From the IMG/VR virus record IMGVR_UViG_2778261694_000005, positions 1-16,171 of that record: a stretch of DNA of 16,171 nt. One strand, written 5' to 3'. Shown piece after piece: positions 466 through 16,171 of the stretch. The first letter of the stretch is position 1; the number at the start of each line of letters is the position of its first letter. The DNA comes from a virus. Taxonomy: Duplodnaviria; Heunggongvirae; Uroviricota; Caudoviricetes. The notes beneath the pieces are model-generated. The model saw nothing but the letters and a program-made list of their open reading frames with translations, was not told the origin of the DNA and searched no databases. The position numbers were made by a program, and so were the translations under genes.

Positions 466-494
466 AGATAAAAGAAATCCCCGCGAGTGCGAGG
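466..494 (-). terminator. Candidate intrinsic terminator (leftward)
   Basis: Minus-strand hairpin CCUCGC-ACUC-GCGGGG (one G-U pair) followed by AUUUCUUUUAUC, just downstream of the 499-729 ORF. Confidence 0.4.
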
Positions 495-498
495 ATTG

Positions 499-729: not shown

Positions 730-745
730 TGTTAATTACTCCATG

Positions 746-1060: not shown

Positions 1061-1071
1061 AGGCGATACCG

Positions 1072-1554: not shown

Positions 1555-2018
1555 TTGCCATTCCTCTCAGTGGAGATCCCAGAAGAAACCTCAGCAACTA
1601 TCCTTGCCTCGCAGGCGTCGACAAAGCTACCAAACGACCCAAGATACTCATTCATGAATGTGGCTCTCCATTTTCCTCTTTGCTTGTGAAACCCAACTCC
1701 AGTAATGCCAGATGTGTTATTTTTCTGTTTTCTCTTGTTCAGAAGATTTATTTGCTGAGAGACGCACCTAAGGTTTTCTATTCGGTTATCACTCGGGTTT
1801 CCATTGATATGGTCTATTACCATCCCTTCTGGAATTTCACCGTGGTGAATTTCCCATACAACCCTATGCACGTATTCTCTTTTTCCGTTAATGCTTACAA
1901 TGCAATGGCCAGATTTTGTTTTTCCTCCTGCCTTATCACCAGCCCTCATCCATCGTGCTGGCTTAATCCGCCAAAAAAGCAATCCATCTTCATAACGAAA
2001 CAATTCAGACGCTTTCAT
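1551..2018 (-). CDS. HNH homing-type endonuclease (155 aa)
   Basis: Contains the HNH-3 type motif VIDHINGNPSDNRIENLR and a C-terminal NTSGITGVGFHKQRGKWRA segment (AP2-like DNA-binding region). Overlaps the recT stop by 14 nt. Confidence 0.75.
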   Translation of the reverse strand: MKASELFRYEDGLLFWRIKPARWMRAGDKAGGKTKSGHCIVSINGKREYVHRVVWEIHHGEIPEGMVIDHINGNPSDNRIENLRCVSQQINLLNKRKQKNNTSGITGVGFHKQRGKWRATFMNEYLGSFGSFVDACEARIVAEVSSGISTERNGK

Positions 2019-2913: not shown

Positions 2914-3221
2914 GCAGCTTCTCCAAAAATGTGTCTGCGTTTGAATATTGCGAAGGCATATTCAGCCTTAACTCTTTCGGTTATTGCATCCCAGAACCAT
3001 TCAGCGGCTTTTTCCTGATAGTTACAGTCATCATCTTCCAGCCAGTCGATAGCGTCCTTAGTGTGTTCATCTGGTTTATATGAGCGAAGCATTTCGCTTA
3101 TTGGGTCGCAACGTTTGCAGAGGCGATCAACTTCACTGTTGATTCGTTCGTAATCTTCATCAGTAAAACTTGCGATTATTTGCGATATTTCACGCTTATC
3201 ATTCAGAGTCAGAATCATCAT
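2910..3221 (-). CDS. Hypothetical acidic protein (103 aa)
   Basis: ATGATG start with AGGAG RBS 5 nt upstream; 4-nt overlap with the recT start. No recognisable motif. Confidence 0.55.
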   Translation of the reverse strand: MMILTLNDKREISQIIASFTDEDYERINSEVDRLCKRCDPISEMLRSYKPDEHTKDAIDWLEDDDCNYQEKAAEWFWDAITERVKAEYAFAIFKRRHIFGEAA

Positions 3222-3302
3222 CTTTCTCCTGTTCTTTGTGCTGATTGAGCATTTCTTTCATCTGACGAATGAATTCTTCGTCTGACCAGTTATCTGTAAA
3301 AC

Positions 3303-3455
3303 TCATTTCCTGCGATACCACGGAAGGTTGATAGCTGATTTCATCGCTTTATTTGCTTCAAGCCACATTTTTGAATCACCAATAAATCGGGCTATTACTG
3401 CTTTGTTCTGTGCAGCACGAAGCATCTGGTGATTAATGGCTATTTCATTGCGCAT
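3303..3455 (-). CDS. kil: Kil-like small protein (50 aa), putative host division inhibitor
   Basis: Sub-threshold ORF with a strong GGAGG RBS 5-9 nt upstream of the ATG at 3455. Contains IARFIGDSKM, which resembles the lambda Kil core as I recall it. Lies directly downstream of the cIII-like gene, as in lambda. Confidence 0.5.
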   Translation of the reverse strand: MRNEIAINHQMLRAAQNKAVIARFIGDSKMWLEANKAMKSAINLPWYRRK

Positions 3456-3574
3456 AACGCCTCCAGTTGTTTCTTTGCTGCTCTGATTAATTGTTTAACT
3501 CGGCGTGATAATTCAGATTCGTGCGGGTAGAAAGCGGACATGACGCCGCTACCCGCGAGCTGAAAGTGCATCAT
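3440..3574 (-). CDS. cIII: CIII-like small protein (44 aa), putative FtsH inhibitor
   Basis: The track ORF 3440-3679 is a read-through extension; the supported start is the ATGATG at 3574, which has an AAGGAG RBS 6 nt upstream. The product (MMHFQLAGSGVMSAFYPHESELSRRVKQLIRAAKKQLEALCAMK) has the amphipathic ES-L-R--K-L pattern of the lambda CIII central helix. Confidence 0.55.
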   Translation of the reverse strand: MMHFQLAGSGVMSAFYPHESELSRRVKQLIRAAKKQLEALCAMK

Positions 3575-3638
3575 GGGTAACTCCTTATATTTGATTGCAT
3601 AACGAAAACGCCTCGAGTGAAGCGTTATTGGTATGCAT

Positions 3639-3664
3639 ATAAAAAAGCCCTCACACTGGAGGGC
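3639..3664 (-). terminator. Intrinsic terminator (leftward) within the PL operon
   Basis: GCCCTC-ACACTG-GAGGGC hairpin (3647-3664) followed on the minus strand by a U6 tract (plus-strand AAAAAA 3641-3646). Confidence 0.6.
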
Positions 3665-3782
3665 AAAGAAGATTTCCAATAATCAGAACAAGTCGGCTCC
3701 TGTTTAGTTACGAGCGACATTGCTCCGTGTATTCACTCGTTGGAATGAATACACAGTGCAGTGTTTATTCTGTTGTTTATGC

Positions 3783-3809
3783 CAAAAATAAAGGCCGACT
3801 ATGCGGCCT
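3783..3809 (-). terminator. Intrinsic terminator (leftward) at the end of the 207-aa gene
   Basis: AGGCCG-ACTATG-CGGCCT hairpin (3792-3809) followed on the minus strand by UUUAUUUUUG; overlaps the gene stop codon. Confidence 0.55.
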
Positions 3810-4422
3810 CGGAAGGAAGTCCAATCATCTTATTCAAATCTTCTACCCGTAAAGCAGGAAGTGCTGCACTTGCTTTATCTGCTTCTTTTGGTAGCAACTC
3901 TTTGCTTTCAGGCCAGACCTCAATAAGTCGCTTAACTGTTGTGACTGAGTTCAAAGCAGCCCATACATTTGATTCGATATCCTTTTTCCTGGCTTCAAGT
4001 TTTTGTTGCAATTCGCAGATTTCATCAAACCTTTTTGTTATTTTGTGTTCTGCGTCAAACATGCATTTATCTTTGTTGGGGGTAGGGAGAAATATATCTT
4101 CACCGTTGCCGTCTTTTCCGTATGAATGCCAGCCAACCCTTCTTCCAGATACAGTCAGATAAATCGAACTTGAACTGACATCGCGTGAGTAAAATGAACA
4201 TCCAAGCTTTTGAAGTTCCTCACTTGCAGCCATTAACTTTGATGCCAGCTGGTCCACTTCTTCGGTTTTCTTTTTCCCGCCAAACGCAATAACTCTGGCG
4301 TCAAGTGCAAGCTGGTTCTTTAACTTTGTTACTTCTTCAAGTTCAGTGAAAACCCCAGACTTAATTAAAGCGTTACGAGCGATTTCCTCTTTCATTCTCG
4401 TAGTTAAGCGGATTGATGACAT
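3799..4422 (-). CDS. Hypothetical protein (207 aa from the RBS-supported start; track ORF extends to 4482)
   Basis: Long ORF immediately downstream of the N-like gene. The internal ATG at 4422 has a GAGG RBS about 9 nt upstream, whereas the ATG at 4482 lies inside N. Predicted helical/coiled-coil and charged; no motif recognised. Confidence 0.65.
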   Translation of the reverse strand: MSSIRLTTRMKEEIARNALIKSGVFTELEEVTKLKNQLALDARVIAFGGKKKTEEVDQLASKLMAASEELQKLGCSFYSRDVSSSSIYLTVSGRRVGWHSYGKDGNGEDIFLPTPNKDKCMFDAEHKITKRFDEICELQQKLEARKKDIESNVWAALNSVTTVKRLIEVWPESKELLPKEADKASAALPALRVEDLNKMIGLPSEAA

Positions 4423-4483
4423 ATTAATTCCTCTCAAATAAGTGGTTTGCTGCCTAATTTCATTTTCTGGCGACCAACACAAG

Positions 4484-4867
4484 TCACCTCGCCGTCAGTT
4501 GTTTTGATTTCCGGTAGCCTGCCGCGTAAATGGCTACGTTTGGAAGACATACACCAGTTTCTGGTTGCTTATGTCCAAACTCATTCGCGTACACAATGGC
4601 CGCTCGCTCCAGATTGCGTCTGTATTCTTTCTGTTGCCAGATCACGTCCTGTGCCATGAACTTAATTGGCTTAGCGTCTTCTATGCGCTCAGGCGTTTCG
4701 TGAGTACCTTTAGCCTGAATCTGCGCTCTGCTTAGAGTAGGGCGGTGTAATACTTCTGAACTTATTGCTTCTTCGCGGGCCAGTACGCCGTTAGCTAATG
4801 CCTTTGCCTTTAAACGCTCACGACGACGAGAACGTGAATTGCCTTTGAACTGAGTTCTGCGTGTCAT
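4484..4867 (-). CDS. N: N-like transcription antiterminator (127 aa)
   Basis: First gene after the about 240-nt leader leftward of OL/PL, with a strong AGGAGG RBS. The N-terminus carries an arginine-rich motif (RSRRRERLKAKALANG) like the lambda/P22 N ARM, and boxB-type hairpins occur at both nut positions. Confidence 0.7.
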   Translation of the reverse strand: MTRRTQFKGNSRSRRRERLKAKALANGVLAREEAISSEVLHRPTLSRAQIQAKGTHETPERIEDAKPIKFMAQDVIWQQKEYRRNLERAAIVYANEFGHKQPETGVCLPNVAIYAAGYRKSKQLTAR

Positions 4868-5032
4868 ATAGACCTCCTGATGAACTTTGGTGGTGTGGTA
4901 GGTGGGAGACCCATTTCGACCTGTTTCGGCCTACTTCAATTCGGCAATAGTCCCGCAGGCCTCGCCGCTTTACGTGCGGCATATTCCCGTCCATGAACCC
5001 TTCACCACACCCCAAAGTTCACTTTGGTTATT

Positions 5033-5047
5033 GCGCTTTGTCAGCGC
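5033..5047 (-). promoter_or_regulatory. nutL boxB RNA hairpin (GCGCUGACAAAGCGC)
   Basis: Minus-strand sequence GCGCTGACAAAGCGC: 5-bp stem with a GACAA pentaloop, in the PL leader upstream of N. I recall this as the P22-type boxB. No canonical boxA was found beside it. Confidence 0.6.
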
Positions 5048-5109
5048 CGTAGATTCATATTCGAATCGTTGTATATTCACCGCCCTGGTGAGTAGTGCGT
5101 CCTGCTGAT

Positions 5110-5200
5110 GGGTAAACTTTATCGGAATGATAAATTAATGGCAATAGCAAAATGATAAATTCTTTTGATTTTCAAATATCGTATTGATTCTTATGGTGTT
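5110..5200 (-). promoter_or_regulatory. Putative OL/PL operator-promoter region
   Basis: AT-rich region with repeated TGATAAATT motifs (5128-5136, 5153-5161) and an inverted half-site TTTATC (5118-5123). The same TGATAAA motif recurs in the cI-cro intergenic region. Exact -35/-10 elements could not be assigned. Confidence 0.45.
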
Positions 5201-5340
5201 TTATTTTGTTGTAGGAATTCGACAGGATAAATAAAGAGATTTGAGGGAGATCTGGATTGCGTGGTTTAGCAAGTTGTATCAATCAGTTTTTCAATAAATA
5301 CAATGAGTTATGTTTTTTTAGGTGGGGGGATCGTGAGGCA

Positions 5341-5365
5341 AAGAAAACCCGGCGCTGAGGCCGGG
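5341..5365 (-). terminator. Intrinsic terminator (leftward) closing the cI-proximal accessory locus
   Basis: Minus-strand CCCGGC-CUCAGC-GCCGGG hairpin followed by UUUUCUU, immediately after the 33-codon ORF and upstream of OL/PL. Confidence 0.6.
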
Positions 5366-5376
5366 TTATGTAGGCA

Positions 5377-5478
5377 TTATGCGGCTTTTTTGGTGTGTGC
5401 TGACGAGCGAGCCAGAATCTCGTTAATGAGAGATCTCAGGGTCATTGCATCTTTGTGCAGAGTGGACATGGTTTTCAT
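5377..5478 (-). CDS. Candidate small protein (33 aa, MKTMSTLHKDAMTLRSLINEILARSSAHTKKAA)
   Basis: Sub-threshold ORF with a GAGG RBS 7 nt upstream of the ATG at 5478, followed within 12 nt by an intrinsic terminator. Could instead be non-coding RNA or a chance ORF. Confidence 0.35.
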   Translation of the reverse strand: MKTMSTLHKDAMTLRSLINEILARSSAHTKKAA

Positions 5479-5547
5479 TGCGTTTCCTCGGTTTATTTTA
5501 TGGTACTAGCCTAGTTCAAATAGACTATATGAAATCTTGATTTACTA

Positions 5548-5928
5548 TTAAGGCCATTGGGTTGGTGGAAGATCGTGGGTTTTTATCTGCGTATTTGCTT
5601 CCACACATTTATCATAGTCTAATTTCTCTACAGCAAGCAATAGTGATTCAGCATACATCAATCCTTGTTTGATGTTCATAACATTTATGCTTGCACTTGC
5701 GGCATCCATATCCTTTGCTGTCTCTACCATGTGCTCAAAGCTTTGAGCAATAGAGTCAACACCGTTTTTCATCCTTGTAAACACTAATTTTAGCTCATCA
5801 AGGCTTGGATTCGTTAGATCATACATCCCATGCATTCCATGGGCTTCGAATAACTCTGACAACGATCTAAGGGCGAAGTTCACAGAATCAATAACTTGGT
5901 CGTACTTTTTCTTATCAAGATCATTCAT
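5548..5928 (-). CDS. Hypothetical protein (126 aa) in the rexAB-equivalent position, candidate lysogen-expressed accessory factor
   Basis: Clean ORF co-oriented with and immediately downstream of cI, between cI and OL/PL. Visibly AT-rich and AAA/AAT-rich codon usage compared with flanking phage genes. No transmembrane segment or known motif recognised. Confidence 0.7.
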   Translation of the reverse strand: MNDLDKKKYDQVIDSVNFALRSLSELFEAHGMHGMYDLTNPSLDELKLVFTRMKNGVDSIAQSFEHMVETAKDMDAASASINVMNIKQGLMYAESLLLAVEKLDYDKCVEANTQIKTHDLPPTQWP

Positions 5929-6045
5929 TAAAAATATAACCTTTTAACTATTTGATATTGCTGCATTTATATCAATATATGTATTTCACATATATCACCC
6001 AAACGTCTCTTCAGGTCACTGGCTATCAGCTATGTGACGATAAAG

Positions 6046-6750
6046 TCACGAACTTTTCAGCCACTCCCTTGCCTCGATGTCATCCAGATGGCGTGACTGC
6101 TTCAGAATACCAGCCACATACTCCACCTTTGCTACTTGATGATAAGGCAACGTTATTGGTCTGTGGTCCTGGTTGATGCTTGTAAACTGGTATTCTCCGT
6201 CTCTGTCATAGCCAAGAACTTTGATCATGTTGTGTCCTTCAACGGTTCTGACAAACACCTCATCACCCGGGAATACTTTGGTGTTAGGCTCAATGAGTAC
6301 ATATTCTCCTGATTTTATTCTAGGCCACATGCTGTCTCCTTTCACACGAAGGCCAAAGGCATCTGGATCATCGCTATAAATTTTGAGCCACCCATCGCGC
6401 TCTTCGGTCATCTCGATGGCACCATCAACACCAAGAATTGCCTCACCAACCACGCGCACTAACCCTTTTCTTACCTGACCGACAAAAGTTAAAGAATCTG
6501 AGCATGATGCAATTGGTGTTACATCATGTACCAAATCAAGCCACCCATTAGGTAACCCAAGTGCGGCTTCAAATTTTCTTGCTAGTTTATCCCCTATGTT
6601 TCGAGTGCTTTTTTCACCGGAGACTTGCGTGAGTTGAGAAGGGCTAACCCCAAGCTTATCGGCAAAGCTTGCATTAGTGTTACCCGCGATTTTTTTATGC
6701 TCATCTAGCAAAAACGCCAGATTCGATTTGCGAATATCTTTGTTTTCCAT
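6046..6750 (-). CDS. cI: CI-type prophage repressor (234 aa), HTH plus S24 LexA-like peptidase domain
   Basis: N-terminal HTH (FADKLGVSPSQLTQV) and C-terminal S24 autoprotease motif (VKGDSMWP with a downstream Lys). Divergent from the cro-like gene across an operator-containing spacer. Confidence 0.85.
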   Translation of the reverse strand: MENKDIRKSNLAFLLDEHKKIAGNTNASFADKLGVSPSQLTQVSGEKSTRNIGDKLARKFEAALGLPNGWLDLVHDVTPIASCSDSLTFVGQVRKGLVRVVGEAILGVDGAIEMTEERDGWLKIYSDDPDAFGLRVKGDSMWPRIKSGEYVLIEPNTKVFPGDEVFVRTVEGHNMIKVLGYDRDGEYQFTSINQDHRPITLPYHQVAKVEYVAGILKQSRHLDDIEAREWLKSS

Positions 6751-6863
6751 CTCACAATTTTCCCTCTATTTAGCAAATGGATAAATACGCAATATGATAA
6801 ATTTACATTGCGGCTGGTTTATCAAAATGGTAAAGTTATTCTGTATGATAAACGGAGGCACTA
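6751..6863. promoter_or_regulatory. OR / PRM-PR divergent promoter-operator region
   Basis: 113-bp spacer between divergent cI and cro carrying several copies of the TGATAAA motif (6794-6800, 6846-6852, GGATAAAT at 6778-6785, inverted TTTATCA at 6818-6824). Candidate -10 TATGAT at 6844-6849 upstream of cro. Confidence 0.5.
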
Positions 6864-7097
6864 ATGAGTAATGAACTACTACGCTGGCGAAAAGAGGCTT
6901 CTAGTGAGGAATGGAAGCGACTCGCCGCATTAGCGAAAACTTCAGTTGGCTATCTTGACCAGATTGCATATGGATTTCGAAGAGCTTCCCCTGATAAAGC
7001 GAATGCAATCGAAGAAGCTACTCGTAATTTCACGGCCTATAAACCCGTGAAAAAGGAAAACCTGGTGTTCGTATCGCGTAGAGCATCAGCAGCATAA
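6864..7097 (+). CDS. cro: Cro-like HTH repressor (77 aa)
   Basis: Small HTH protein with a GGAGG RBS, divergent from cI and first gene of the rightward operon. Confidence 0.75.
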   Translation: MSNELLRWRKEASSEEWKRLAALAKTSVGYLDQIAYGFRRASPDKANAIEEATRNFTAYKPVKKENLVFVSRRASAA

Positions 7098-7104
7098 GTA
7101 ACAC

Positions 7105-7150
7105 CGCTCTTTTCACAATGGACATTCGTCCTACGTCGCTGACAAAGCGA
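7105..7150 (+). promoter_or_regulatory. nutR (boxA CGCTCTTTT plus boxB UCGCUGACAAAGCGA)
   Basis: boxA-like CGCTCTTTT at 7105-7113 and a boxB hairpin TCGCT-GACAA-AGCGA at 7136-7150 between cro and cII. The loop is identical to that of the nutL boxB. Confidence 0.55.
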
Positions 7151-7235
7151 GCCCCAAGATATCTGACCAACTAAGGTCATATGCGTTTCCACGCATACCT
7201 TTCAACTAACTATTCACTATTGGAAATATTAAGAA

Positions 7236-7535
7236 ATGACACAAGCAAGTTACAGCAAGCCAACACAGCGAGAAATTGATCGCGCTGAAACTGATTTACT
7301 CATCAACCTGTCAACGCTTACCCAGCGCGGTCTGGCAAAGATGATTGGCTGTCATGAATCGAAGATAAGCAGAACGGACTGGAGATTTATTGCTTCGGTC
7401 TTGTGTGCTTTCGGAATGGCATCAGACATCAGTCCGATTAGCAGGGCTTTTAAGTATGCGCTTGATGGACTCACCAATAAAAAACGCCCGGTGTGCAAGA
7501 CCGAGCGTTCTGAACAAATCCAGATGGAGTTCTGA
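7236..7535 (+). CDS. cII: CII transcriptional activator (99 aa)
   Basis: The C-terminus (LTNKKRPVCKTERSEQIQMEF) matches the lambda CII C-terminus (ILTNKKRPAATERSEQIQMEF, from memory); positioned after cro/nutR. Confidence 0.85.
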   Translation: MTQASYSKPTQREIDRAETDLLINLSTLTQRGLAKMIGCHESKISRTDWRFIASVLCAFGMASDISPISRAFKYALDGLTNKKRPVCKTERSEQIQMEF

Positions 7536-7567
7536 GGTCATTACTGGATCTATCAACAGGAGTAATT

Positions 7568-7729
7568 ATGACAAAACGTCGTAAGAAATACCAGGAAAAA
7601 GAAGAGATTCGACACCCTGATTCACCTGAGGGATTAGTGGTAGCCGCAGCAAATAACAGGGCGTTCGCAGAGCGCCTTGTTGGTGTTTACAGACTAGCCA
7701 AAGCAGGAGTGAAACATGGGCGTCGTTAA
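7568..7729 (+). CDS. Small basic ORF (53 aa) between cII and the replication initiator
   Basis: AGGAG RBS 6-10 nt upstream of the ATG at 7568; basic N-terminus (MTKRRKKYQEKEE). Sub-threshold ORF; function unknown. Confidence 0.35.
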   Translation: MTKRRKKYQEKEEIRHPDSPEGLVVAAANNRAFAERLVGVYRLAKAGVKHGRR

Positions 7730-7778
7730 GTTAGCTGATTACAGGCATAACCCTGTACAACATCAGGAGGCATCCAGT

Positions 7779-8606
7779 ATGGGGTATGTCTCTATACACC
7801 GCCAGTTTATGGACAGCAGGCTCTATAAGGACTCTCAGGCAGTACATCTTTGGCTTCACTTAATCCTCAAGGCTAATCACGAATCTACTGTCGTCAATAC
7901 GGATATCGGTCCGATAACTGTTGATCGCGGTCAGATGATAACTGGACGCCCGTCGCTGGTCAGAGAAACATTCATCCCCGACAACAAAGTTCGGAGCTTA
8001 TTACGGACTTTTGAGTCGAAAGGGATGCTTAATATTTGCTCGATGGGGAAGAAATTTAGCCTGTTTACAATCGTTAAATATGACGATTTTCAGGCAAAAA
8101 ATTGTCCAACGGTTGTCCAACGGTTGTCCAACGCAAACACCAGTAATGGCGCGGCTCTCAGCGGAGATTGTCCAACGGTTGTCCAACGGTTGTCCATAAA
8201 CAATAATATAAATAATATCTCTAATACTGACGTATTAGAGAGTGCCACAGCAGACAAAAAGTCTGACAAGAAAAAACCTTCCGTTAGCTGTCAGGATGTT
8301 GTCGATGCTTACCACGAAATCCTTCCTGAAGCGCCAAGAATCCGCGCACTGAATGACAAGCGTAAAAACCAGATCCGAACGTTCTGGCGCAAAGCCGGAG
8401 TGATAACCCGCCAGCTTGACGGGCATGGGTTCACGATGCAGGACTGGAGAAATTATTTGAGCTACGTAGGCGAAAATTGCCGATGGATGTTCGAAGAACG
8501 CCCAAACCATCAACGCGGAACCGTCTGGCACAAAAAGGGATTTGATTTCCTGCTTAACGACAATACCTACCTGAAAGTTCGTGAGGGTGAACACGATGAC
8601 CGATAA
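7779..8606 (+). CDS. Replication initiation protein, O-like / replisome organizer (275 aa from the RBS-supported start; track ORF starts at 7716)
   Basis: The ATG at 7779 has an AGGAGG RBS 8 nt upstream. The gene contains the iteron array and AT-rich stretch internally, as lambda O contains ori, and directly precedes the DnaB-type helicase. Confidence 0.7.
   Translation: MGYVSIHRQFMDSRLYKDSQAVHLWLHLILKANHESTVVNTDIGPITVDRGQMITGRPSLVRETFIPDNKVRSLLRTFESKGMLNICSMGKKFSLFTIVKYDDFQAKNCPTVVQRLSNANTSNGAALSGDCPTVVQRLSINNNINNISNTDVLESATADKKSDKKKPSVSCQDVVDAYHEILPEAPRIRALNDKRKNQIRTFWRKAGVITRQLDGHGFTMQDWRNYLSYVGENCRWMFEERPNHQRGTVWHKKGFDFLLNDNTYLKVREGEHDDR
8102..8196. repeat. Origin iterons: two clusters of 3 tandem 11-bp repeats TTGTCCAACGG, followed by an AT-rich stretch
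   Basis: Direct repeats at 8102-8134 and 8168-8196 (last copy of each cluster degenerate) inside the O-like gene, followed by an AT-rich segment 8197-8240 (candidate unwinding element). Confidence 0.8.
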
Positions 8607-10032
8607 TTTTTATGCGCCGCCCCATAGCATCGAGGCAGAGCAGGCGGTGATTGGTGGATTGCTTCTGGATGATGACAGCAGTGAGCGCGTCCAGAAAGTT
8701 CTGGCGATGCTGAAGCCCGATTCATTTTACAGCCGACCACACAAAATCCTTTTCGAAGAAATAACCAGAATGCACTGGGAGCAAAAGCCAGTAGATGGCC
8801 TGACGCTTTTCGATGAACTGGAGCGTAAATCGTTAACGGTGTCTGTTGGCGGTTTTGCTTATATCGCTGAGATCGCAAAGAACACGCCAAGCGCAGCAAA
8901 CATCGTTGCCTATGCAATGCAGGTTCGTGAAACCGCAATGGAACGCTACGCCATCAACCGCATGACTGAAGCGACGGAATTGCTCTATTCCCGCAACGGA
9001 ATGACTGCGACGCAGAAGTACGAAGCTATTCAGTCGATTTTCACGCAACTGACAGACCATGCAAAAACCGGATCGCGTCGCGGCCTTCGTTCATTTGGTG
9101 AGGTCATGGAAGACTGGGTTAGCGACCTTGAGAAGAGATTTGACCCATCAGGAGAACAACGGGGAATGAGCACAGGGATCCCATCGTTGGACAGGATGCT
9201 GTCACCGAAAGGTCTGGTGAAAGGCTCTCTGTTTGTCATTGGCGCTCGCCCTAAGATGGGGAAAACGACGCTATACAGCCAGATGGCAATCAATTGCGCA
9301 GTGCATGAGAAAAAGCCCGCATTGATGTTCAGCCTTGAAATGCCAGGTGATCAGATACTGGAAAAACTGGTAGGGCAGAAGTCTGGTGTTAACCCGAATA
9401 TTTTTTACCTTCCGGCGACAAATGACGCCGATGACGGCTATCAGGGTGATTACGATGGTGACTTCAACAGGGCGATAGAAACAGCCAATCGCTTGAGTGA
9501 AATAGACCTGCTTTACATCGACGACACGCCGGGATTATCTCTGGCTCAAATCGTCAGCGAAAGCCGTCGAATCAAGCGAGAAAAAGGATGTGTTGGCATG
9601 ATTCTGGTCGATTACCTGACACTAATGACCGCTGAGAAGGCCGATCGCAACGACCTTGCTTACGGCATGATCACCAAAGGACTGAAGAACCTTGCCAAAG
9701 AGCTTGATTGCGTTGTTGTGCTTCTGACGCAGCTTAACCGCGCACTGGAAAGCAGAACCAATAAACGCCCATTACCAAGTGACTCACGAGATACAGGGCA
9801 GATTGAACAGGATTGCGATTATTGGGTCGGGATCCATCGTGAAGGCGCTTTTGATGACAGTGTTCCACCTGGTGAAACTGAACTAATCCTTCGTCTCAAT
9901 CGTCATGGCAATACCGGCACGGTGTATTGCATTCAGGCAAATGGCGCTATTTATGACACAGACCAACAGTCTGCTGAAATGCGCCGACGTGAACGCGAGG
10001 AACCGCAGTCCAAGAAGAAAGGAGGATTCTGA
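8596..10032 (+). CDS. Replicative DNA helicase, DnaB family (478 aa from the ATG at 8596)
   Basis: Walker A motif GARPKMGKTT and DnaB-like N- and C-terminal architecture; position equivalent to P22 gene 12. The track start at 8581 lacks an RBS, whereas the ATG at 8596 follows GAGGGTG. Confidence 0.85.
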   Translation: MTDNFYAPPHSIEAEQAVIGGLLLDDDSSERVQKVLAMLKPDSFYSRPHKILFEEITRMHWEQKPVDGLTLFDELERKSLTVSVGGFAYIAEIAKNTPSAANIVAYAMQVRETAMERYAINRMTEATELLYSRNGMTATQKYEAIQSIFTQLTDHAKTGSRRGLRSFGEVMEDWVSDLEKRFDPSGEQRGMSTGIPSLDRMLSPKGLVKGSLFVIGARPKMGKTTLYSQMAINCAVHEKKPALMFSLEMPGDQILEKLVGQKSGVNPNIFYLPATNDADDGYQGDYDGDFNRAIETANRLSEIDLLYIDDTPGLSLAQIVSESRRIKREKGCVGMILVDYLTLMTAEKADRNDLAYGMITKGLKNLAKELDCVVVLLTQLNRALESRTNKRPLPSDSRDTGQIEQDCDYWVGIHREGAFDDSVPPGETELILRLNRHGNTGTVYCIQANGAIYDTDQQSAEMRRREREEPQSKKKGGF

Positions 10033-10060
10033 TGACCATCTACATCACTGAGCTAATAAC

Positions 10061-10092
10061 AGGCCTGCTGGTAATCGCAGGCCTTTTTATTT
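10061..10092 (+). terminator. Intrinsic terminator (tR2-like) after the replication genes
   Basis: AGGCCTGC-TGGTAATC-GCAGGCCT hairpin (8-bp stem) followed by TTTTTATTT. Confidence 0.6.
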
Positions 10093-10108
10093 GGGGGAGA
10101 GGGAAGTC

Positions 10109-10549
10109 ATGAAAAAACTAACCTTTGAAATTCGATCTCCAGCACATCAGCAAAACGCTATTCACGCAGTACAGCAAATTCTTCCAGACCCAACCAAACC
10201 AATCGTAGTAACCATTCAGGAACGCAACCGCAGCTTAGACCAAAACCGAAAGCTTTGGGCTTGCCTTGGTGACGTCTCTCGTCAGGTTGAATGGCATGGT
10301 CGCTGGCTGGATGCAGAAAGCTGGAAGTGTGTGTTTACCGCAGCATTAAAGCAGCAGGACGTTGTTCCTAACCTTGCCGGGAATGGCTTTGTGGTAATAG
10401 GCCAGTCAACCAGCAGGATGCGTGTAAGCGAATTTGCGGAGCTATTAGAGCTTATACAGGCATTCGGTACAGAGCGTGGCGTTAAGTGGTCAGACGAAGC
10501 GCGACTGGCTCTGGAGTGGAAAGCGAGATGGGGAGATCGGGCAGCATGA
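10109..10549 (+). CDS. ninB: NinB (Orf) recombination mediator (146 aa)
   Basis: Protein starting [55 protein letters not shown], essentially identical to lambda NinB as recalled. The track start at 10091 is an upstream TTG extension; the ATG at 10109 has a GGGAGAGGGAAG RBS. Confidence 0.9.
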
Positions 10550-10719
10550 TGCGATGTTATCGGTGCGGTGAATGCAAAGAAGATAACCGCTTCCGACCAA
10601 ATCAACCTTACTGGAATCGATGGTGTCTCCGATGTGAAAGAACACCAACAGGGGTGTTACCACTACCGCAGGAAAAGGAGGACGTGTGGCGAGACAGCGA
10701 CGAAGTATCACCGACATAA
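10546..10719 (+). CDS. ninD: NinD (57 aa), small Cys-rich protein
   Basis: Starts at the ATGATG overlapping the ninB stop (ATGA). Sequence [16 protein letters not shown]... with C-x2-C...C-x2-C, as in lambda NinD. Confidence 0.8.
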
Positions 10720-10868
10720 TCTGCGAAAACTGCAAATACCTTCCAACGAAACGCTCCAGAAATAAACGCAAGCCAATCCCAAAAGAATCTGACGTAAAAA
10801 CCTTCAACTACACGGCTCACCTGTGGGATATCCGGTGGCTAAGACATCGTGCGAGGAATACAAGGTGA
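10686..10868 (+). CDS. ninE: NinE (60 aa)
   Basis: GTG start; product [59 protein letters not shown], near-identical to lambda NinE from memory. Confidence 0.85.
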
Positions 10869-11035
10869 TTGACCCAAATCGAAGTTACGAACAAGAAAGC
10901 GTCGAGCTGGCTTTAACGTGCGCTAATTGCGGTCAGAAGCTGCATGTGCTGTAAGTTCACGTGTGTGAGCACTGCTGCGCAGAACTGATGAGCGATCCGA
11001 ATAGCTCGATGCACGAGGAAGAAGACGATGGCTAA
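10865..11035 (+). pseudogene. ninF: ninF interrupted by an in-frame TAA (29-codon N-terminal ORF 10865-10954; remaining frame continues to 11035)
   Basis: GTG start overlapping the ninE stop. Translation [29 protein letters not shown]-stop, then the same frame reads [26 protein letters not shown] and ends in the ATGgcTAA overlap with ninG. Lambda NinF as recalled has Glu where the TAA occurs here. Confidence 0.5.
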
Positions 11036-11639
11036 ACCAGCGCGAAGACGATGTAAAAACGATGAATGTCGGGAATGGTTTCACCCTGCATTCGCCAATC
11101 AGTGGTGGTGCTCTCCAGAGTGTGGAACCAAGATAGCACTCGAACGACGAAGCAAAGAACGCGAAAAAGCGGAAAAGGCAGCAGAGAAGAAACGACGACG
11201 AGAGGAGCAGAAACAGAAAGATAAACTTAAGATTCGAAAACTCGCCTTAAAGCCCCGCAGTTACTGGATTAAACAAGCCCAACAAGCCGTAAACGCCTTC
11301 ATCAGAGAAAGAGACCGCGACTTACCATGTATCTCGTGCGGAACGCTCACGTCTGCTCAGTGGGATGCCGGACATTACCGGACAACTGCTGCGGCACCTC
11401 AACTCCGATTTGATGAACGCAATATTCACAAGCAATGCGTGGTGTGCAACCAGCACAAAAGCGGAAATCTCGTTCCGTATCGCGTCGAACTGATTAGCCG
11501 CATCGGGCAGGAAGCAGTAGACGAAATCGAATCAAACCATAACCGCCATCGCTGGACTATCGAAGAGTGCAAGGCGATTAAGGCAGAGTACCAACGGAAA
11601 CTCAAAGACCTGCGAAATAGCAGAAGTGAGGCCGCATGA
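11028..11639 (+). CDS. ninG: NinG (Rap) recombination endonuclease (203 aa)
   Basis: Cys-rich N-terminus ([24 protein letters not shown]) and overall sequence as lambda NinG; overlaps ninF and ninH with typical 4-nt overlaps. Confidence 0.9.
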
Positions 11640-11842
11640 CGTTCTCAGTAAAAACCATTCCAGACATGCTCGTTGAAGCATACGGAAACCAGACAGAAGT
11701 AGCACGCAGACTGAAATGTAGTCGCGGTACGGTCAGAAAATACGTTGATGATAAAGACGGGAAAATGCACGCCATCGTCAACGACGTTCTCATGGTTCAT
11801 CGCGGATGGAGTGAAAGAGATGCGCTATTACGAAAAAATTGA
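11636..11842 (+). CDS. ninH: NinH (68 aa)
   Basis: [37 protein letters not shown]... (Fis-like HTH), as lambda NinH. Confidence 0.85.
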
Positions 11843-12491
11843 TGGCAGCAAATACCGAAATATTTTGGTAGTTGGCGATCTGCACGGATGCTACACGAAC
11901 CTGATGAAAAAACTGGAGACGATAGGATTCGACACCAAAAAAGACCTGCTTATCTCAGTGGGCGATTTGGTTGATCGCGGTACAGAGAACGTCGAATGCC
12001 TGGAATTAATCACATTCCCCTGGTTCAGAGCTGTACGTGGAAACCATGAGCAAATGATGATTGATGGCTTATCAGAGCGTGGAAACGTTAATCACTGGCT
12101 GCTTAATGGCGGTGGCTGGTTCTTTAATCTCGATTACGACAAAGAAATTCTGGCTAAAGCTCTTGCCCATAAAGCAGATGAACTTCCGTTAATCATCGAA
12201 CTGGTGAGCAAAGATAAAAAATATGTCATCTGCCACGCCGATTATCCTTGTGACGAATACGAATTTGGAAAGCCAGTTGATCATCAGCAGGTAATCTGGA
12301 ACCGCGAACGAATCAGCAACTCACAAAACGGGATCGTGAAAGAAATTAAAGGCGCGGACACGTTCATCTTTGGTCATACGCCAGCAGTGAAACCACTCAA
12401 ATTTGCCAACCAGATGTATATCGATACCGGCGCAGTGTTCTGCGGAAATCTCACATTGATTCAGGTACAGGGAGAAGGCGCGTGGGCATAA
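11820..12491 (+). CDS. ninI: Ser/Thr protein phosphatase, lambda PPase / NinI-like (223 aa from the ATG at 11820)
   Basis: Metallophosphatase motifs GDLHGC, GDLVDRG and GNHE. Matches the lambda phosphatase starting [15 protein letters not shown]; the track start at 11745 is an upstream extension overlapping ninH. Confidence 0.9.
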
Positions 12492-13000
12492 GAGAACTAA
12501 ACCTCACCAAAGAACAGCATGAGTGGCTGAATGGCTGGCTTGAACTGTGGGGCGCATGGGTTTATTCAGGTCGTCTGGAAAAGCGCATGAGCAGCGTAAT
12601 AGCGAAGTTCATGGAGAGCGTAGAGCCGGGAAGAGTTATGACAAGGCCAATGTGCAATGATGATGATGGAATGTTGATTTCTCAGGTCGTCGATTCCGTC
12701 ATGTACATTGACAAGAAAGCCTTTGGCATCCTCCTCAGCTACTACGCTCATGGTTCATCTAAGCGAGCAATTGCATCCTACTATCACGCGACTGCAAAGC
12801 CACGCAAGATGTGTGGACGTGGTGGCGAGGGATGTAGAAAACCTTCACTGGCAACCTGTAGAAACGAAATTGACGACATCCTGAAAGCGTCGTTATTTGT
12901 TTTGTACCAGCCAATGCAAAATGCTTTCAAAATGCGTAAACGTGTTGAGAAAGTTAAGCATGTTGCTGTTAAAAGCCTTGACATGCAATTATCCATTTAG
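12482..13000 (+). CDS. Q: Late-gene antiterminator Q-like protein (172 aa)
   Basis: GTG start with a GGAGAAGG RBS, overlapping the ninI stop. Occupies the Q position immediately upstream of the PR'-like promoter and short terminated leader, and contains a Cys cluster ([10 protein letters not shown]...C). Not lambda Q by sequence; assignment is positional. Confidence 0.6.
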
Positions 13001-13007
13001 CCATAAT
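12978..13007 (+). promoter_or_regulatory. Candidate late promoter PR' (TTGACA - 18 bp - CATAAT)
   Basis: Perfect -35 TTGACA at 12978-12983 and -10 CATAAT at 13002-13007, straddling the Q stop codon as PR' does in lambdoid phages. Confidence 0.5.
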
Positions 13008-13017
13008 TAGAAGGTAA

Positions 13018-13059
13018 GCTGCCGTTAGTGACTCTTAAGTTGCAACGGTGGCTTTTTTT
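13018..13059 (+). terminator. Candidate tR' intrinsic terminator just downstream of PR'
   Basis: 9-bp stem (GCTGCCGTT / AACGGTGGC, two G-U pairs) with a 17-nt loop, followed by T7 (13053-13059). Would yield a short terminated leader unless modified by Q. Confidence 0.5.
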
Positions 13060-13063
13060 ATTT

Positions 13064-13138
13064 GGGTCAGTCGTATAAAGGTCATTACGGAAGGCTGTTA
13101 ACCTTCTTATCGTGGTTCGAGCCCACGCTGTCCCGCCA
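13064..13138 (+). tRNA. tRNA-Asn(GUU)-like gene, 75 nt, with one acceptor-stem mismatch
   Basis: Manual fold: acceptor GGGTCAG/CTGTCCC (T4:T69 mismatch), U8, A14, G18G19, anticodon stem GAAGG/CCTTC with loop CTGTTAA (anticodon GTT), T-arm CGTGG-TTCGAGC-CCACG, discriminator G, encoded CCA. Confidence 0.55.
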
Positions 13139-13143
13139 AACAT

Positions 13144-13219
13144 GCTGGTTTAGCTCCAATGGTAGAGCAGTCGCCTTGTAAGCGAATGGGTAGCGGTTCA
13201 AGTCCGTTAACCAGCACCA
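13144..13219 (+). tRNA. tRNA-Thr(UGU) gene, 76 nt
   Basis: Manual fold: acceptor GCTGGTT/AACCAGC, D-arm GCTC-CAATGGTA-GAGC, anticodon loop CTTGTAA (anticodon TGT), T-arm AGCGG-TTCAAGT-CCGTT, discriminator A, encoded CCA. Confidence 0.75.
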
Positions 13220-13300
13220 TAACTGAGCCGTAGCCACTGGCTATCCTGAATTCATCAGTGATAGTTACGCTGCGGCCTTCTACACATGATCTTCGTGAAA

Positions 13301-13342
13301 GCGGGTGGCAGGAGGTCGCGCTAACAACCTCCTGCCGTTTTG
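13301..13342 (+). terminator. GC-rich hairpin / weak terminator downstream of the tRNAs
   Basis: 10-bp stem GGCAGGAGGT / ACCTCCTGCC (13307-13336) with a 10-nt loop, followed by GTTTTG; flanking GCGGG/CCCGTGC could extend the structure. Confidence 0.4.
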
Positions 13343-13461
13343 CCCGTGCATATCGGTCACGAACAAATCTGATTACTAAACACAGTAGCCTGGATTTGTT
13401 CTATCAGTAATCGACCTTATTACTAATTAAATAGAGCAAATCCCCTTATTGGGGGTAAGAC

Positions 13462-13785
13462 ATGAAGATGCCAGAAAAACATGACCTGTTAGCCGCCATT
13501 CTCGCGGCAAAGGAACAAGGCATCGGGGCAATCCTTGCGTTTGCAATGGCGTACCTTCGCGGCAGATATAATGGCGGTGCGTTTACAAAAACAGTAATCG
13601 ACGCAACGATGTGCGCCATTATCGCCTGGTTCATTCGTGACCTTCTCGACTTCGCCGGACTAAGTAGCAATCTCGCTTATATAACGAGCGTGTTCATCGG
13701 CTACATCGGTACTGACACGATTTGTTCGCTTATCAAACGCTTCGCTGCTAAAAAAGCCGGAGTAGAAGATGGTGGAAATCAATAA
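13462..13785 (+). CDS. S: Holin S, class I, lambda-type dual start (107 aa)
   Basis: [45 protein letters not shown]... is near-identical to lambda S, including the Met1/Met3 dual-start (antiholin/holin) arrangement. Confidence 0.95.
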
Positions 13786-14245
13786 TCAACGTAAGGCGTT
13801 CCTCGATATGCTGGCGTGGTCAGAGGGAACTGATAACGGACGGCAGAAAACCAGAAATCATGGTTATGACGTCATTGTAGGCGGAGAGCTATTCACTGAT
13901 TACTCCGATCACCCTCGCAAACTTGTCACGCTAAACCCCAAACTCAAATCAACAGCAGCAGGACGTTACCAGCTTCTTTCCCGTTGGTGGGATGCTTACC
14001 GTAAGCAGCTTGGCCTGAAAGACTTCTCTCCCAAAAGCCAGGATGCAGTGGCATTGCAGCAGATTAAAGAGCGTGGCGCTTTACCGATGATTGATCGTGG
14101 TGATATTCGTCAGGCTATTGATCGTTGCAGTAATATTTGGGCTTCATTGCCCGGTGCTGGCTACGGTCAGTATGAACACAAGATCGATAGTCTGATTGCC
14201 AAATTCAAAGAAGCTGGCGGGGTGGTTAATGAAACTTCGCTATAA
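13769..14245 (+). CDS. R: Endolysin R, lytic transglycosylase (158 aa)
   Basis: [49 protein letters not shown]... matches lambda R; the C-terminal residues differ from lambda. Overlaps the S stop. Confidence 0.95.
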
Positions 14246-14690
14246 GCTGGTTATTTCTGCTTTCCTCCTGACTTTATTCGGTTCTCTCGTCTGGTCAGCT
14301 AATCATTACCACAATAAAGCCATTGAATACAAAAAACAGCGCGACGAAAACGCTATGGCATTAGATTCGGCTATGGCGACGATCTCTGATATGCAGAAGC
14401 GTCAACGTGACGTAGCAGAACTCGATGCCAGATATACAAAGGAGCTTGCTGATGCTAACGCGACTATCGAAAGTCTCCGTGCTGATGTTTCTGCTGGTCG
14501 TAAGCGCCTGCAAGTCGCCGCCACCTGTGCAAAGTCAACGACCGGAGCCAGCGGCATGGGCGATGGAGAAAGCCCAGGACTTACAGCAGATGCTGAACTC
14601 AATTATTACCGTCTCCGAAGTGGAATCGACAAGATAACCGCGCAGGTTAACTACCTGCAGGAGTACATCAGGACGCAATGCCTGAAATAA
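14229..14690 (+). CDS. Rz: Spanin inner-membrane subunit Rz (153 aa from the ATG at 14229)
   Basis: N-terminal transmembrane segment ([19 protein letters not shown]) and coiled-coil periplasmic domain; start overlaps the R 3' end. The track start at 14196 is an upstream extension. Only the central part resembles lambda Rz. Confidence 0.85.
   Translation: MKLRYKLVISAFLLTLFGSLVWSANHYHNKAIEYKKQRDENAMALDSAMATISDMQKRQRDVAELDARYTKELADANATIESLRADVSAGRKRLQVAATCAKSTTGASGMGDGESPGLTADAELNYYRLRSGIDKITAQVNYLQEYIRTQCLK
14452..14637 (+). CDS. Rz1: Spanin outer-membrane lipoprotein Rz1 (61 aa), embedded in Rz in the +1 frame
   Basis: Strong AAAGGAG RBS 7 nt upstream of the ATG at 14452. Signal peptide with lipobox VVSAC followed by a Pro-rich mature region (KSPPPVQSQRPEP), entirely inside Rz. 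Confidence 0.8.
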   Translation: MLTRLSKVSVLMFLLVVSACKSPPPVQSQRPEPAAWAMEKAQDLQQMLNSIITVSEVESTR

Positions 14691-14721
14691 ATTTTTTTGC
14701 AAATCACAAAGTCAATTTAAT

Positions 14722-14746
14722 GAGCCTCGCGGTGCGGGGCTTTTTT
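14722..14746 (+). terminator. Intrinsic terminator after the lysis cassette
   Basis: AGCCTCGC-GGT-GCGGGGCT hairpin (8-bp stem, one G-U pair) followed by TTTTT. Confidence 0.6.
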
Positions 14747-14890
14747 ATATCTGAATTTCACAGCGCATCTCACGCGCATATTAACGAGAGCCTTTCAGTA
14801 AGCGAGCCTGAGAAATGCCGTTATAGGTGGCGACCTCTCTCGGGCGGCTTTTCTGTGAGACAGGCTCACTTTCTAAAAGGTAAAGACGCT

Positions 14891-15409
14891 ATGAATCATC
14901 AATTGGCTAATCTCGATTTCCGGGACATGGTTGTTGTTTCTGGTGATCGCGTGATCACAACCTCCCGCAAGGTAGCAGCTTACTTCGACAAGCAGCATCA
15001 CCACATCATTCAGAAAATCGAAAAGCTAGACTGTTCGGATGAATTTCTAACCAGCAACTTTTCGCGGGTTACCTATGAACACAAGGGTAATCAGTATGTT
15101 GAATATGAAATTTCCAAAGACGGCGCGATGTACATCATCATGTCGTTTACCGGCAAAAAAGCTGCCGCCATCAAAGAGGCGTTTATCAAAGCATTTAATT
15201 GGATGCGTGACAGGCTGATGGAGATGGCTCACTCATACCAAAGAGAGCACAACGAGTTAATGCTGGAGTTCATGAAGGAAAAGGATGTTGCCAGTATGTC
15301 AGGACGCTTGCTGAACCGCTGGGGCAGGATCAAAAAACCGCAACTCATAGCAAGAATCGAAAGGCTTGAGCAGCAGGCGCAAATATCGATCCCCGGACTG
15401 CCAAAGTGA
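14891..15409 (+). CDS. rha: Rha-family phage regulatory protein (172 aa from the ATG at 14891)
   Basis: N-terminal region VVVSGDRVITTSRKVAAYFDKQHHHIIQKIEKL fits the Rha-domain signature as I recall it. The track ORF start at 14678 reads through the terminator; the ATG at 14891 follows an AAAGG RBS. Confidence 0.7.
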   Translation: MNHQLANLDFRDMVVVSGDRVITTSRKVAAYFDKQHHHIIQKIEKLDCSDEFLTSNFSRVTYEHKGNQYVEYEISKDGAMYIIMSFTGKKAAAIKEAFIKAFNWMRDRLMEMAHSYQREHNELMLEFMKEKDVASMSGRLLNRWGRIKKPQLIARIERLEQQAQISIPGLPK

Positions 15410-15820
15410 CCATTCCAAAGCCCATCTACGGGTGGGCTTGATAATGAAACCGTGATTTACATCCCCACAATCCGGGTATGTAAAAGATAGTTCAGGCGAG
15501 AACAGATTTAACTAAATCTGTGCACCACCAGTTGCGGCAGTACAGCGAAACAACCCAAGCCAGAAAGTGGGGAAATAACACTGGCAGCCACTGAAAGATG
15601 AACCTCCTGCCTTATGGCAAAAAAGATTCTTTGTGGTGGCGGACTGATGGAAAGACATCGGTTATTGCAGAGGCCATTCAATGAGTGGTCTCGACAATGG
15701 CTTATACCCTGCACGGGATAACTTAACTGATATCCCTTTTAACGGATAAACGGAGCCAATAATGGCAGAGAATGTCGGCATTATGGCAGTGAAATTTGGA
15801 TAAATCGGAGATTAGTACAT

Positions 15821-16171
15821 ATGCCGCCACGAATCCCAAAAGCCTGCCGTGTTCGCGGTTGCCGCCATACCACCACAGATCCGTCAGGCTATTGTGAAAG
15901 CCACAAAAGCGAAGGCTGGAAGCAATACAAGCCAGGCCAGTCCCGGCACCAGCGCGGTTATGGTTCGAAATGGGATGTTATCCGTGAACGTGTGCTCAAG
16001 CGTGACAAAGGCCTGTGTCAGTTATGTCTGCGTGCCGGTGTGGTGCGTGAGGCGAAAACCGTTGACCACATCATTCCTAAAGCGCATGGCGGCACAGATG
16101 CCGACAGCAATCTGCAGAGCCTGTGCTGGCCGTGCCATAAGGCGAAGACGGCCCGTGAACGGCTAAAGTGA
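15821..16171 (+). CDS. HNH endonuclease (116 aa), packaging-associated
   Basis: HNH motif with zinc-binding Cys pairs (CQLC ... DHIIPKAHGG ... CWPCH) and a GGAG RBS. Position just upstream of where terminase genes are expected, as for HNH proteins that assist cos cleavage in HK97-like phages. Confidence 0.8.
   Translation: MPPRIPKACRVRGCRHTTTDPSGYCESHKSEGWKQYKPGQSRHQRGYGSKWDVIRERVLKRDKGLCQLCLRAGVVREAKTVDHIIPKAHGGTDADSNLQSLCWPCHKAKTARERLK

Follow-up and report, generated by a model that had tools for sequence, protein, structure and literature searches.

A tandem tRNA-Asn(GUU)/tRNA-Thr(UGU) cassette in the late operon of lambdoid and P22-like phages and its possible role in evading tRNA-cleaving defence proteins

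The tRNA pair and its late-operon setting

The window analyzed here is the whole of a 16,171-nucleotide (nt) stretch of phage DNA (Caudoviricetes; positions 1 to 16,171 of the IMG/VR virus record IMGVR_UViG_2778261694_000005), and the element under study is a pair of adjacent tRNA genes, one for tRNA-Asn(GUU) and the other for tRNA-Thr(UGU), which together form a mobile tRNA cassette found in the late operons of lambdoid and P22-like phages. An earlier reading of this sequence, which we refer to as the original prediction, had described two adjacent tRNA-shaped sequences with encoded CCA ends and had named a tRNA predictor as one of its checks. ARAGORN, run over the whole 16 kb window, called both genes at the same coordinates and found no others, and both structures were also accepted by cmscan with scores above the RF00005 gathering score of 29 bits (Table 1). 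Examination of the sequence confirmed that CCA is encoded at the end of each gene, and that the bases recognized by the cognate synthetases are intact in both, i.e., G34, U35, U36 and G73 in tRNA-Asn, and G1:C72, C2:G71, G35 and U36 in tRNA-Thr, these being the identity sets used by the E. coli enzymes. Both are genuine, intact phage-borne tRNA genes.

The window as a whole is a mosaic lambdoid/P22-like early-right and lysis region, for which the best matches, HK106 and Sf6, cover 50-54%. The placement of the pair between the gene for the late-gene antiterminator Q and the lysis genes, also part of the original prediction, is borne out by the Pfam matches on either side. For gene 59 of Sf6, the homologue of the window Q, the record gives the label “similar to phage 21 Q”, and the late promoter pR', which overlaps the 3' end of Q, coincides with an Sf6 feature annotated as “nearly identical to phage 21 late promoter”. 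Downstream of pR', the tR' hairpin (13016-13054) folds with -21.5 kcal/mol (z = -4.72, with 0 of 200 shuffles equal), runs at its 3' end into a U7 tract at 13053-13059, and aligns with the tR' of the Sf6 record and the “aRNA” of the phage 21 record. The leader also agrees with the qut of the Sf6 record, and pR' with a promoter that the phage 21 record gives. A simple terminator scan did not detect tR', the long interrupted stem of which falls outside the rules of that scan. The tRNA-Asn gene starts 4 nt past the tR' U-tract, and these 4 nt are too short to hold a promoter dedicated to the tRNA pair. Transcription of the pair would come from pR', either only after Q-modified RNA polymerase passes tR' or by basal read-through, and host tRNA-processing enzymes would cut the two tRNAs from the 5' end of the late transcript.

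Among the late-operon genes 3' of the tRNAs, that for the holin is the first to encode a protein, and it is followed by an open reading frame (ORF) at the position taken by the endolysin gene in Sf6 and HK446, and then by Rz. Between tRNA-Thr and the holin gene lies a further strong hairpin, which could serve the late leader as a site of processing or as a further terminator, and which is uncertain as a part of the tRNA module.

Table 1. Position of the tRNA pair and of the late-operon features around it in the window
Feature	Position	Strand	Basis
Q, late-gene antiterminator, phage 21 type	12482-13000	+	Pfam PF06530 Phage_antitermQ, E = 1.1e-25
pR' late promoter (TTGACA, 18-nt spacer, CATAAT)	12978-13007	+	Promoter scan, 11/12 positions match
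Late leader, qut region and tR' intrinsic terminator	13016-13059	+	RNA fold and alignment
tRNA-Asn(GUU), 75 nt	13064-13138	+	ARAGORN; RF00005 53.0 bits, E = 3.7e-9
Spacer AACAU, 5 nt, between tRNA-Asn and tRNA-Thr	13139-13143	+	Sequence and alignment
tRNA-Thr(UGU), 76 nt	13144-13219	+	ARAGORN; RF00005 61.5 bits, E = 1.8e-11
Hairpin and adjoining 3' GUUUUG, in the interval from tRNA-Thr to the holin gene	13301-13347	+	Fold -28.2 kcal/mol, z = -3.68
Holin, lambda S family	13462-13785	+	Pfam PF05106, E = 8.7e-30
ORF at the Sf6/HK446 endolysin position	13769-14245		No Pfam match

Distribution and composition of the cassette

The pair is an ordinary sequence feature that is already known, and that has been annotated and discussed for years. 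For example, the Sf6 record labels it “similar to phage 21”, it is also annotated in SfI, BTP1 and SPN9CC, and it is present in phage 21 and HK446; the 2013 paper on SfI described tandem Asn(GUU)/Thr(UGU) genes downstream of Q (PMC3636060). A 401-base pair (bp) module, comprising the Q 3' end, pR', qut, tR', and the Asn and Thr genes, is 96-99% identical in many phage records. We observe the whole module in 28 of the 155 phage records with a match, including Sf6, BTP1, SPN9CC, HF4s and the S107 group, with tRNA-Asn and tRNA-Thr annotated in most of these 28, and in 1316 of 5426 complete E. coli genomes, i.e., in approximately a quarter. The pair of phage 21, Sf6, SfI, BTP1, SPN9CC and HK446 is part of the same module as that of the window, whereas the early region around the window copy is a different mosaic. 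In HK446, the same two tRNAs are found with a lambda-type Q and pR', and because of this combination we conclude that the pair moves as a module of its own. The RefSeq record of HK446 (NC_019714.1) has no annotated tRNA, though both genes are present at 35097-35252; in accordance with this missing annotation, a 2026 preprint describes HK446 as encoding “a single” tRNA-Thr(UGU), with the adjacent tRNA-Asn unmentioned (10.64898/2026.07.10.737580).

To gather homologues of the two genes, three seeds were used in scans of viral contigs and of representative genomes, and analysis of 180 loci with ARAGORN yielded 151 copies of the tRNA-Asn (26 distinct variants) and 157 Thr(UGU) genes (36 variants). 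Among these loci (L012-L191), the slot immediately after tR' holds arrays of differing composition. The arrays with this tRNA-Asn are Asn-Thr (120 loci), Asn-Gly(UCC) (8), Asn-Phe-Thr-Arg(UCU) (7) and Asn alone (5), with Asn-Phe (3), Asn-Phe-Thr (3) and Asn-Thr-Arg (2) being rarer; arrays of the form Asn-Tyr-Thr-Ser rest on a different Asn gene. Asn is first in all but one of these loci, and Lys(UUU) occurs in none of them. The scan of representative genomes (genome_contigs) matched six species representatives, two of which are bins of gut metagenome-assembled genomes labelled Segatella copri and Collinsella sp. (L013 and L017); these two are probably mis-binned enterobacterial phage contigs, and the genome_contigs matches are uninformative on host range.

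Two unusual genes were seen in this slot. In the Salmonella phage ST64T (L004:1581-1652), and in SW-70, ST-29 and Salfasec13b, tRNA-Thr is replaced by a tRNA-like gene, which in ST64T has a Thr-type acceptor stem and CCA and scores 42.1 bits with RF00005, and which is not called by ARAGORN. The anticodon loop of the ST64T gene is only 4 nt long (CCUUC-CUAA-GAAGG), which leaves it without an anticodon, and the gene may be dead or may act as a decoy that does not decode. In addition, an IMG/VR contig (L188:1359-1434) contains, within an Asn-Thr-Gly(UCC) array, a tRNA-Thr(UGU) in which the first 26 nt are of the phage type and the last 50 nt are identical to the host gene thrU, and which from its sequence looks like a phage/host tRNA recombinant.

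The original prediction had likened the position of the pair to the late-operon slot in which Stx phages carry ileZ-argN-argO, and this likeness is seen in the Stx phage 933W, where the three genes occupy the same slot, past Q, pR', qut and tR' and before stx and the first late genes. The 933W array differs in that it encodes one Ile and two Arg tRNAs and lies behind a longer leader, which includes pT, a putative separate promoter; a distant search found no sequence similarity between the 933W tRNAs and the window pair. The 933W tRNAs are usually explained by the supply of rare codons for stx and the late genes.

Structural conservation of the two tRNA genes

The acceptor-stem T:T mismatch and the variable loop of 4 nt which the original prediction pointed out in the Asn gene are both present in the cmscan alignment, as U4:U69 and UUAU, together with a second non-standard pair, U13:U22, in the D stem; the discriminator is G73 and the anticodon stem is GAAGG/CCUUC. 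The window copy differs from those of phage 21, Sf6 and HK446 by one T-loop base, with C at position 60 in the window (and in 9 of the 151 copies) and U in most others. The same prediction had suggested from these features that the gene may be a decaying copy or an unusual functional tRNA. Our analysis of the 26 variants argues against the former. Six stem pairs are altered on both sides, and covariation over the stems is 0.141, compared to 0.061 in shuffled alignments (reached in 0 of 500) and at most 0.054 with slid partners. Pairs 5:68, 6:67, 7:66, 28:42 and 29:41 vary on both sides with pairing kept, and three of these (6:67, 7:66 and 28:42) separate the E. coli/Salmonella lineage from the Klebsiella lineage, with all changes compensated. 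U4:U69 is unpaired in 24 of the 26 variants and U13:U22 in all 26, in both lineages. Because U4:U69 is kept unpaired in 24 of 26 variants while the neighbouring pairs covary, we read it as a retained feature; the mismatches are those of a tRNA under structural selection, and not damage.

We consider it very improbable that tRNA-Asn is a decaying, non-functional pseudo-tRNA carried beside a functional Thr gene. The two mismatches and the short variable loop would fit such a gene, as would a weak centroid fold of the single sequence (z = -1.09) and a few rare variants that are damaged, e.g., by a change of the discriminator G73 to U or by U33A. However, the gene scores 53 bits with RF00005, its identity elements for asparaginyl-tRNA synthetase (AsnRS) are intact, its pair changes are two-sided and compensated, both mismatches are common to the E. 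coli/Salmonella and Klebsiella lineages, and Asn is the most constant member of the slot, present even without Thr. Covariation thus largely refutes the pseudogene reading.

The phage tRNA-Asn is closer to another host gene than to its host counterpart: identity is 62% to host asnT and 71% to host glyT, which encodes tRNA-Gly(UCC). With glyT (L006:474-548), the phage gene shares a GUAU..UUAC D stem that includes U13:U22, and a 4-nt variable loop. This likeness suggests that tRNA-Asn may have arisen from a Gly-type tRNA by a switch of anticodon and identity.

The Thr(UGU) gene had been described as canonical, a description that needs to be amended, as cmscan flags a G27:A43 mismatch at the top of the anticodon stem, which leaves only 4 bp and which proves to be the feature that matters for function. 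At the next pair, the window has U28:A42 and host thrU has C28:G42. An alignment of 35 of the 36 Thr variants, with the phage/host chimera left out, contains seven pairs altered on both sides, with covariation of 0.206 against 0.088 when shuffled (0 of 500) and at most 0.077 with slid partners. G27 and A43 are kept in 144 of 144 Thr copies and G39 in 143 of 144, counts that were taken from the scan seeded on the T arm and acceptor stem, since a scan seeded on the anticodon arm cannot show such conservation. The conservation of these three bases is partly explained by the shared ancestry of close relatives.

Nuclease evasion, codon supply and other explanations

Old, a protein of the P2 prophage, kills through degradation of the host tRNA-Thr(UGU), which it cleaves 3' of the C in the paired CNG motifs (nt 28-30 and 40-42), so that the anticodon arm is amputated (Govande et al., NAR 2025, PMC12445682). 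The same study showed that, in the context of thrU, resistance to Old requires both a change of the CNG motif and a shortened stem, that a phage tRNA-Thr(UGU) rescues as a replacement for the host tRNA and not by shielding it, and that the tRNA-Thr(UGU) of phage 21 “also protected against P2-OLD” (PMC12445682). The window gene (13144-13219) shows 100% identity with its tRNA-Thr counterparts in phage 21, Sf6 and HK446; its identity with the tRNA-Thr21 of the published work is based on the naming of the phage 21 tRNA-Thr(UGU) in that paper and on our alignment to AJ237660, the record of phage 21. On Old+ cells, HK97, HK542 and Bas34 are reported to plate again when HK446 tRNA-Thr is supplied, but not when E. 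coli thrU is (Derzhaev et al., bioRxiv 2026, 10.64898/2026.07.10.737580). An anti-Old function of tRNA-Thr is therefore experimentally supported for the identical sequence, in work published in 2025-2026; these tests used expression from a plasmid, whereas the window gene lies in its native late operon. That the plasmid-expressed tRNA-Thr of phage 21 or HK446 restores ACA decoding or plating implies that it is charged with Thr.

Comparison of the anticodon stems gives CUG/CAG, 5 bp and UAAU for host thrU, and UCG/CGA, 4 bp and UAAG for the window tRNA-Thr. The window gene thus has the sequence features of an Old-resistant tRNA, namely the UGU anticodon, altered CNG motifs at 28-30 and 40-42, and a stem shortened at 27:43. 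Old, a TOPRIM tRNA-cleaving nuclease (tRNase), kills infected cells through removal of the anticodon arm of thrU, and the published work on the identical sequence shows the phage tRNA-Thr, without CNG on either strand and with its stem shortened by G27:A43, to be a nuclease-resistant stand-in for thrU, which survives so that ACA codons can still be read.

For tRNA-Asn, a relevant comparison is with a second tRNase, AriB of the PARIS system, which acts on Lys(UUU), Thr(UGU) and Asn(GUU) of E. coli, depleting and cleaving these tRNAs (Belukhina et al. 2025, PMC12409363). AriB cuts between nt 40 and 41, within U36-A-A-U39-C40, a change of U39 abolishes cleavage of tRNA-Lys, and the T5 versions of the Lys, Thr and Asn tRNAs together neutralize PARIS (PMC12409363). 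We observe that U39 is lost from both window tRNAs, with C39-C40-U41 in Asn against U-C-C in the host, and G39-C40-G41 in Thr against U-C-A in the host. Host asnT has CGG/CCG, i.e., CNG on both strands, and UAAU, whereas the window tRNA-Asn has AAG/CUU and UAAC. Old cleavage of tRNA-Asn(GUU) has also been followed, alongside that of Lys and Val, with tRNA-ThrU being cut fastest (PMC12445682). The phage tRNA-Asn, without both CNG motifs and without the U39 of the UAAU element that AriB needs, would most likely follow the same strategy as tRNA-Thr against a related tRNase; judged from these sequence features, an anti-nuclease role of tRNA-Asn is a serious possibility that stops a little short of being probable.

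Other phages with tRNA genes offer partial parallels. The T5 set resembles the window pair in that U39 is lost in both Thr and Asn, and two of the three anticodons targeted by AriB are common to both phages; the bodies of the T5 tRNAs are, however, unrelated to those of the window (53-66% identity), the window pair lacks the Lys(UUU) of T5, and T5 is a lytic phage with ~24 tRNAs whereas the window phage is temperate and has two. In P1, trnA (Asn) and trnT (Thr) encode Asn(GUU) and then Thr(UGU) in the same order as in the window, only 2 nt apart (L008:2925-3078), but within the C1-controlled ban operon and not in a late leader, and N4 encodes Asn, Ser, Thr and Pro (L009:1837-2086). The Thr genes of N4 and P1 are 88% and 83% identical to that of the window, respectively, and both have G39, whereas the Asn bodies of P1 and N4 differ from the window Asn (58-63% identity); P1 Thr retains CNG on both strands, and P1 Asn retains UAAU. 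From these sequences, unrelated coliphages with very small tRNA sets appear to keep converging on Asn(GUU) plus Thr(UGU).

Overall, the likely function of the pair is defence evasion more than codon supply. We regard as reasonably probable the full proposal of a mobile cassette in which tRNA-Thr would act against Old and tRNA-Asn against a related tRNase, with ACA decoding as a probable side benefit. A more tentative extension, which we favor less than its alternatives taken together, is that tRNA-Asn may be the second half of a two-tRNA counter-defence cassette directed at the prophage- and satellite-borne Old/PARIS family of TOPRIM tRNases, with the pR'-proximal slot as a swappable array of nuclease-resistant tRNAs, and with U4:U69 and the glyT-like body as adaptations that escape recognition by the nuclease while AsnRS identity is kept. 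If this is true, the composition of the array would track the tRNase repertoire of the local host population.

Several observations weigh against these proposals. For tRNA-Thr, expression from the late operon could come too late against Old, which is triggered by early functions; escape of HK446 from Old was attributed mainly to the protein Oad2, and the viral tRNA-Thr alone failed to rescue lambda (10.64898/2026.07.10.737580). For tRNA-Asn, our literature search found no report testing it against any nuclease, and Asn(GUU) was not among the Old targets depleted >2-fold (10.64898/2026.07.10.737580). The anticodon stem of tRNA-Asn is unshortened, at 5 bp, and the Asn of the Klebsiella lineage, with C28:G42, again has CNG on both strands. 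ARAGORN calls no Lys(UUU) gene in the window, and every array surveyed likewise lacks this principal target of PARIS; because T5 tRNA-Lys was required in every reported PARIS rescue (PMC12409363), Asn and Thr alone should not defeat the characterized B185 PARIS. Evasion of two other nucleases was considered and ruled out: the anticodon loop of tRNA-Asn (CUGUUAA) is identical to that of the host, and colicin E5 recognizes the anticodon loop, which excludes evasion of the colicin E5 type, and the anticodon loop of tRNA-Thr is identical to that of thrU, which excludes evasion of HepS.

Codon supplementation, in which the tRNAs would add decoding of phage-enriched codons, chiefly ACA, and so speed late protein synthesis, as proposed for the ileZ-argN-argO genes of Stx phages, may contribute, and is unlikely to be the principal explanation. 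We ran the codon-usage comparison that the original prediction had put forward, and found 5.4 ACA per 1000 codons in a K-12 sample of 42 genes, 11.4 in the ORFs of the window, 11.2 and 18.0 in the late and early genes of HK446, and 10.4 and 16.1 in the late and early genes of lambda, which has no tRNA genes. Codon supply supposes that ACA is read only by the low-abundance thrU tRNA, and the enrichment of ACA over the host sample (~2-fold in late and ~3-fold in early genes) speaks for it and, to that extent, against evasion as the main function. Other arrays in the slot hold Arg(UCU) and Gly(UCC), which read AGA and GGA, codons that are classically rare in E. coli. The same ACA bias, 17.3 against 7.1, is reported in the SfI paper (PMC3636060), and codon supply is compatible with an anti-defence role rather than exclusive of it. 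However, tRNA-less lambda is equally enriched in ACA, so that the enrichment, common to carriers and lambda, does not single out the carriers and is a general lambdoid trait, and ACA peaks in the early genes, the products of which are made before any tRNA from the late operon would be present. Across the gene sets, AAU makes up a similar share of Asn codons (0.37-0.53), and a single multi-copy host tRNA reads both Asn codons. For Asn codons, the authors of the SfI paper themselves saw “no obvious bias”, and to them the significance of the Asn gene was “not clear” (PMC3636060). Finally, phage tRNA-Thr rescued Old toxicity where extra host thrU did not, and because of this difference it is resistance that matters, and not dose alone.

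Two further explanations concern the position of the genes rather than their decoding. One holds that the tRNAs serve mainly as entry sites for RNase P and RNase E, detaching the leader together with its terminator and setting the 5' end and stability of the mRNA for lysis and structural proteins, with decoding in second place. In every lineage, tRNA-Asn begins 4 nt past the tR' U-tract, Asn is nearly always first in the array whatever comes next, and a strong hairpin follows the pair, all of which would suit a processing element; this explanation nevertheless leaves unexplained both the conserved, intact identity elements and anticodons and the match of the anticodon-stem features to mapped determinants of nuclease resistance, the identical tRNA-Thr, when expressed on a plasmid and so outside the late operon, rescues Old toxicity, and lambda has no tRNA at this position, and we therefore rate it as quite improbable. 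The other, that the pair compensates for a host tRNA gene disrupted by integration, or consists of host tRNA fragments left over from an attachment site, is scarcely credible. Many such phages integrate into tRNA genes, the attachment site (attP) of HK446 is thrW-like, SfI integrates in thrW (PMC3636060), and the idea was raised for the HK446 tRNA-Thr in the 2026 preprint (10.64898/2026.07.10.737580). Against this, neither gene is truncated, their identity to the host counterparts is only 62% (asnT) and 72% (thrU), the anticodon is UGU and not the CGU of thrW, the HK446 pair lies in the late leader ~14 kb from attP and int, and the same pair occurs with different Q types and integration modules. 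In addition, the host tRNA gene that is disrupted on integration is restored by attP sites of this type. The length and divergence of the genes, together with their distance from attP in HK446, rule out both the fragment and the compensation readings. The original prediction had allowed that predictors might reject both structures, or that the Asn-like sequence might be a fragment of a host tRNA; both structures were accepted, and tRNA-Asn is full length with 62% identity to asnT.

Defence evasion thus remains our preferred function for the pair, which exemplifies a recent shift in how such genes are seen: temperate phages with one or two tRNAs appear to keep nuclease-proof replacements for host tRNAs, and not mainly fixes for codon bias. 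The Thr half of the cassette is explained by experiment; the Asn half has stood in the literature as “not clear” since 2013, and the 2026 work on HK446 passed over it. The role of tRNA-Asn is now a specific question, framed by the loss of the elements used by Old and AriB, a target list in common with Thr(UGU), and a strongly conserved position as first gene of the slot; this question deserves further work, as does the way in which the slot varies in composition. With roughly one in four complete E. coli genomes carrying it, the pair could influence prophage induction and superinfection in strains with P2-like prophages or P4-like satellites.

Directly past the lysis genes of the window, an ORF at 14678-15409 encodes a protein with Rha (PF09669) and ORF11CD3 (PF10549) domains, where relatives often carry other small genes. 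This ORF is a mosaic insertion unrelated to the tRNAs.

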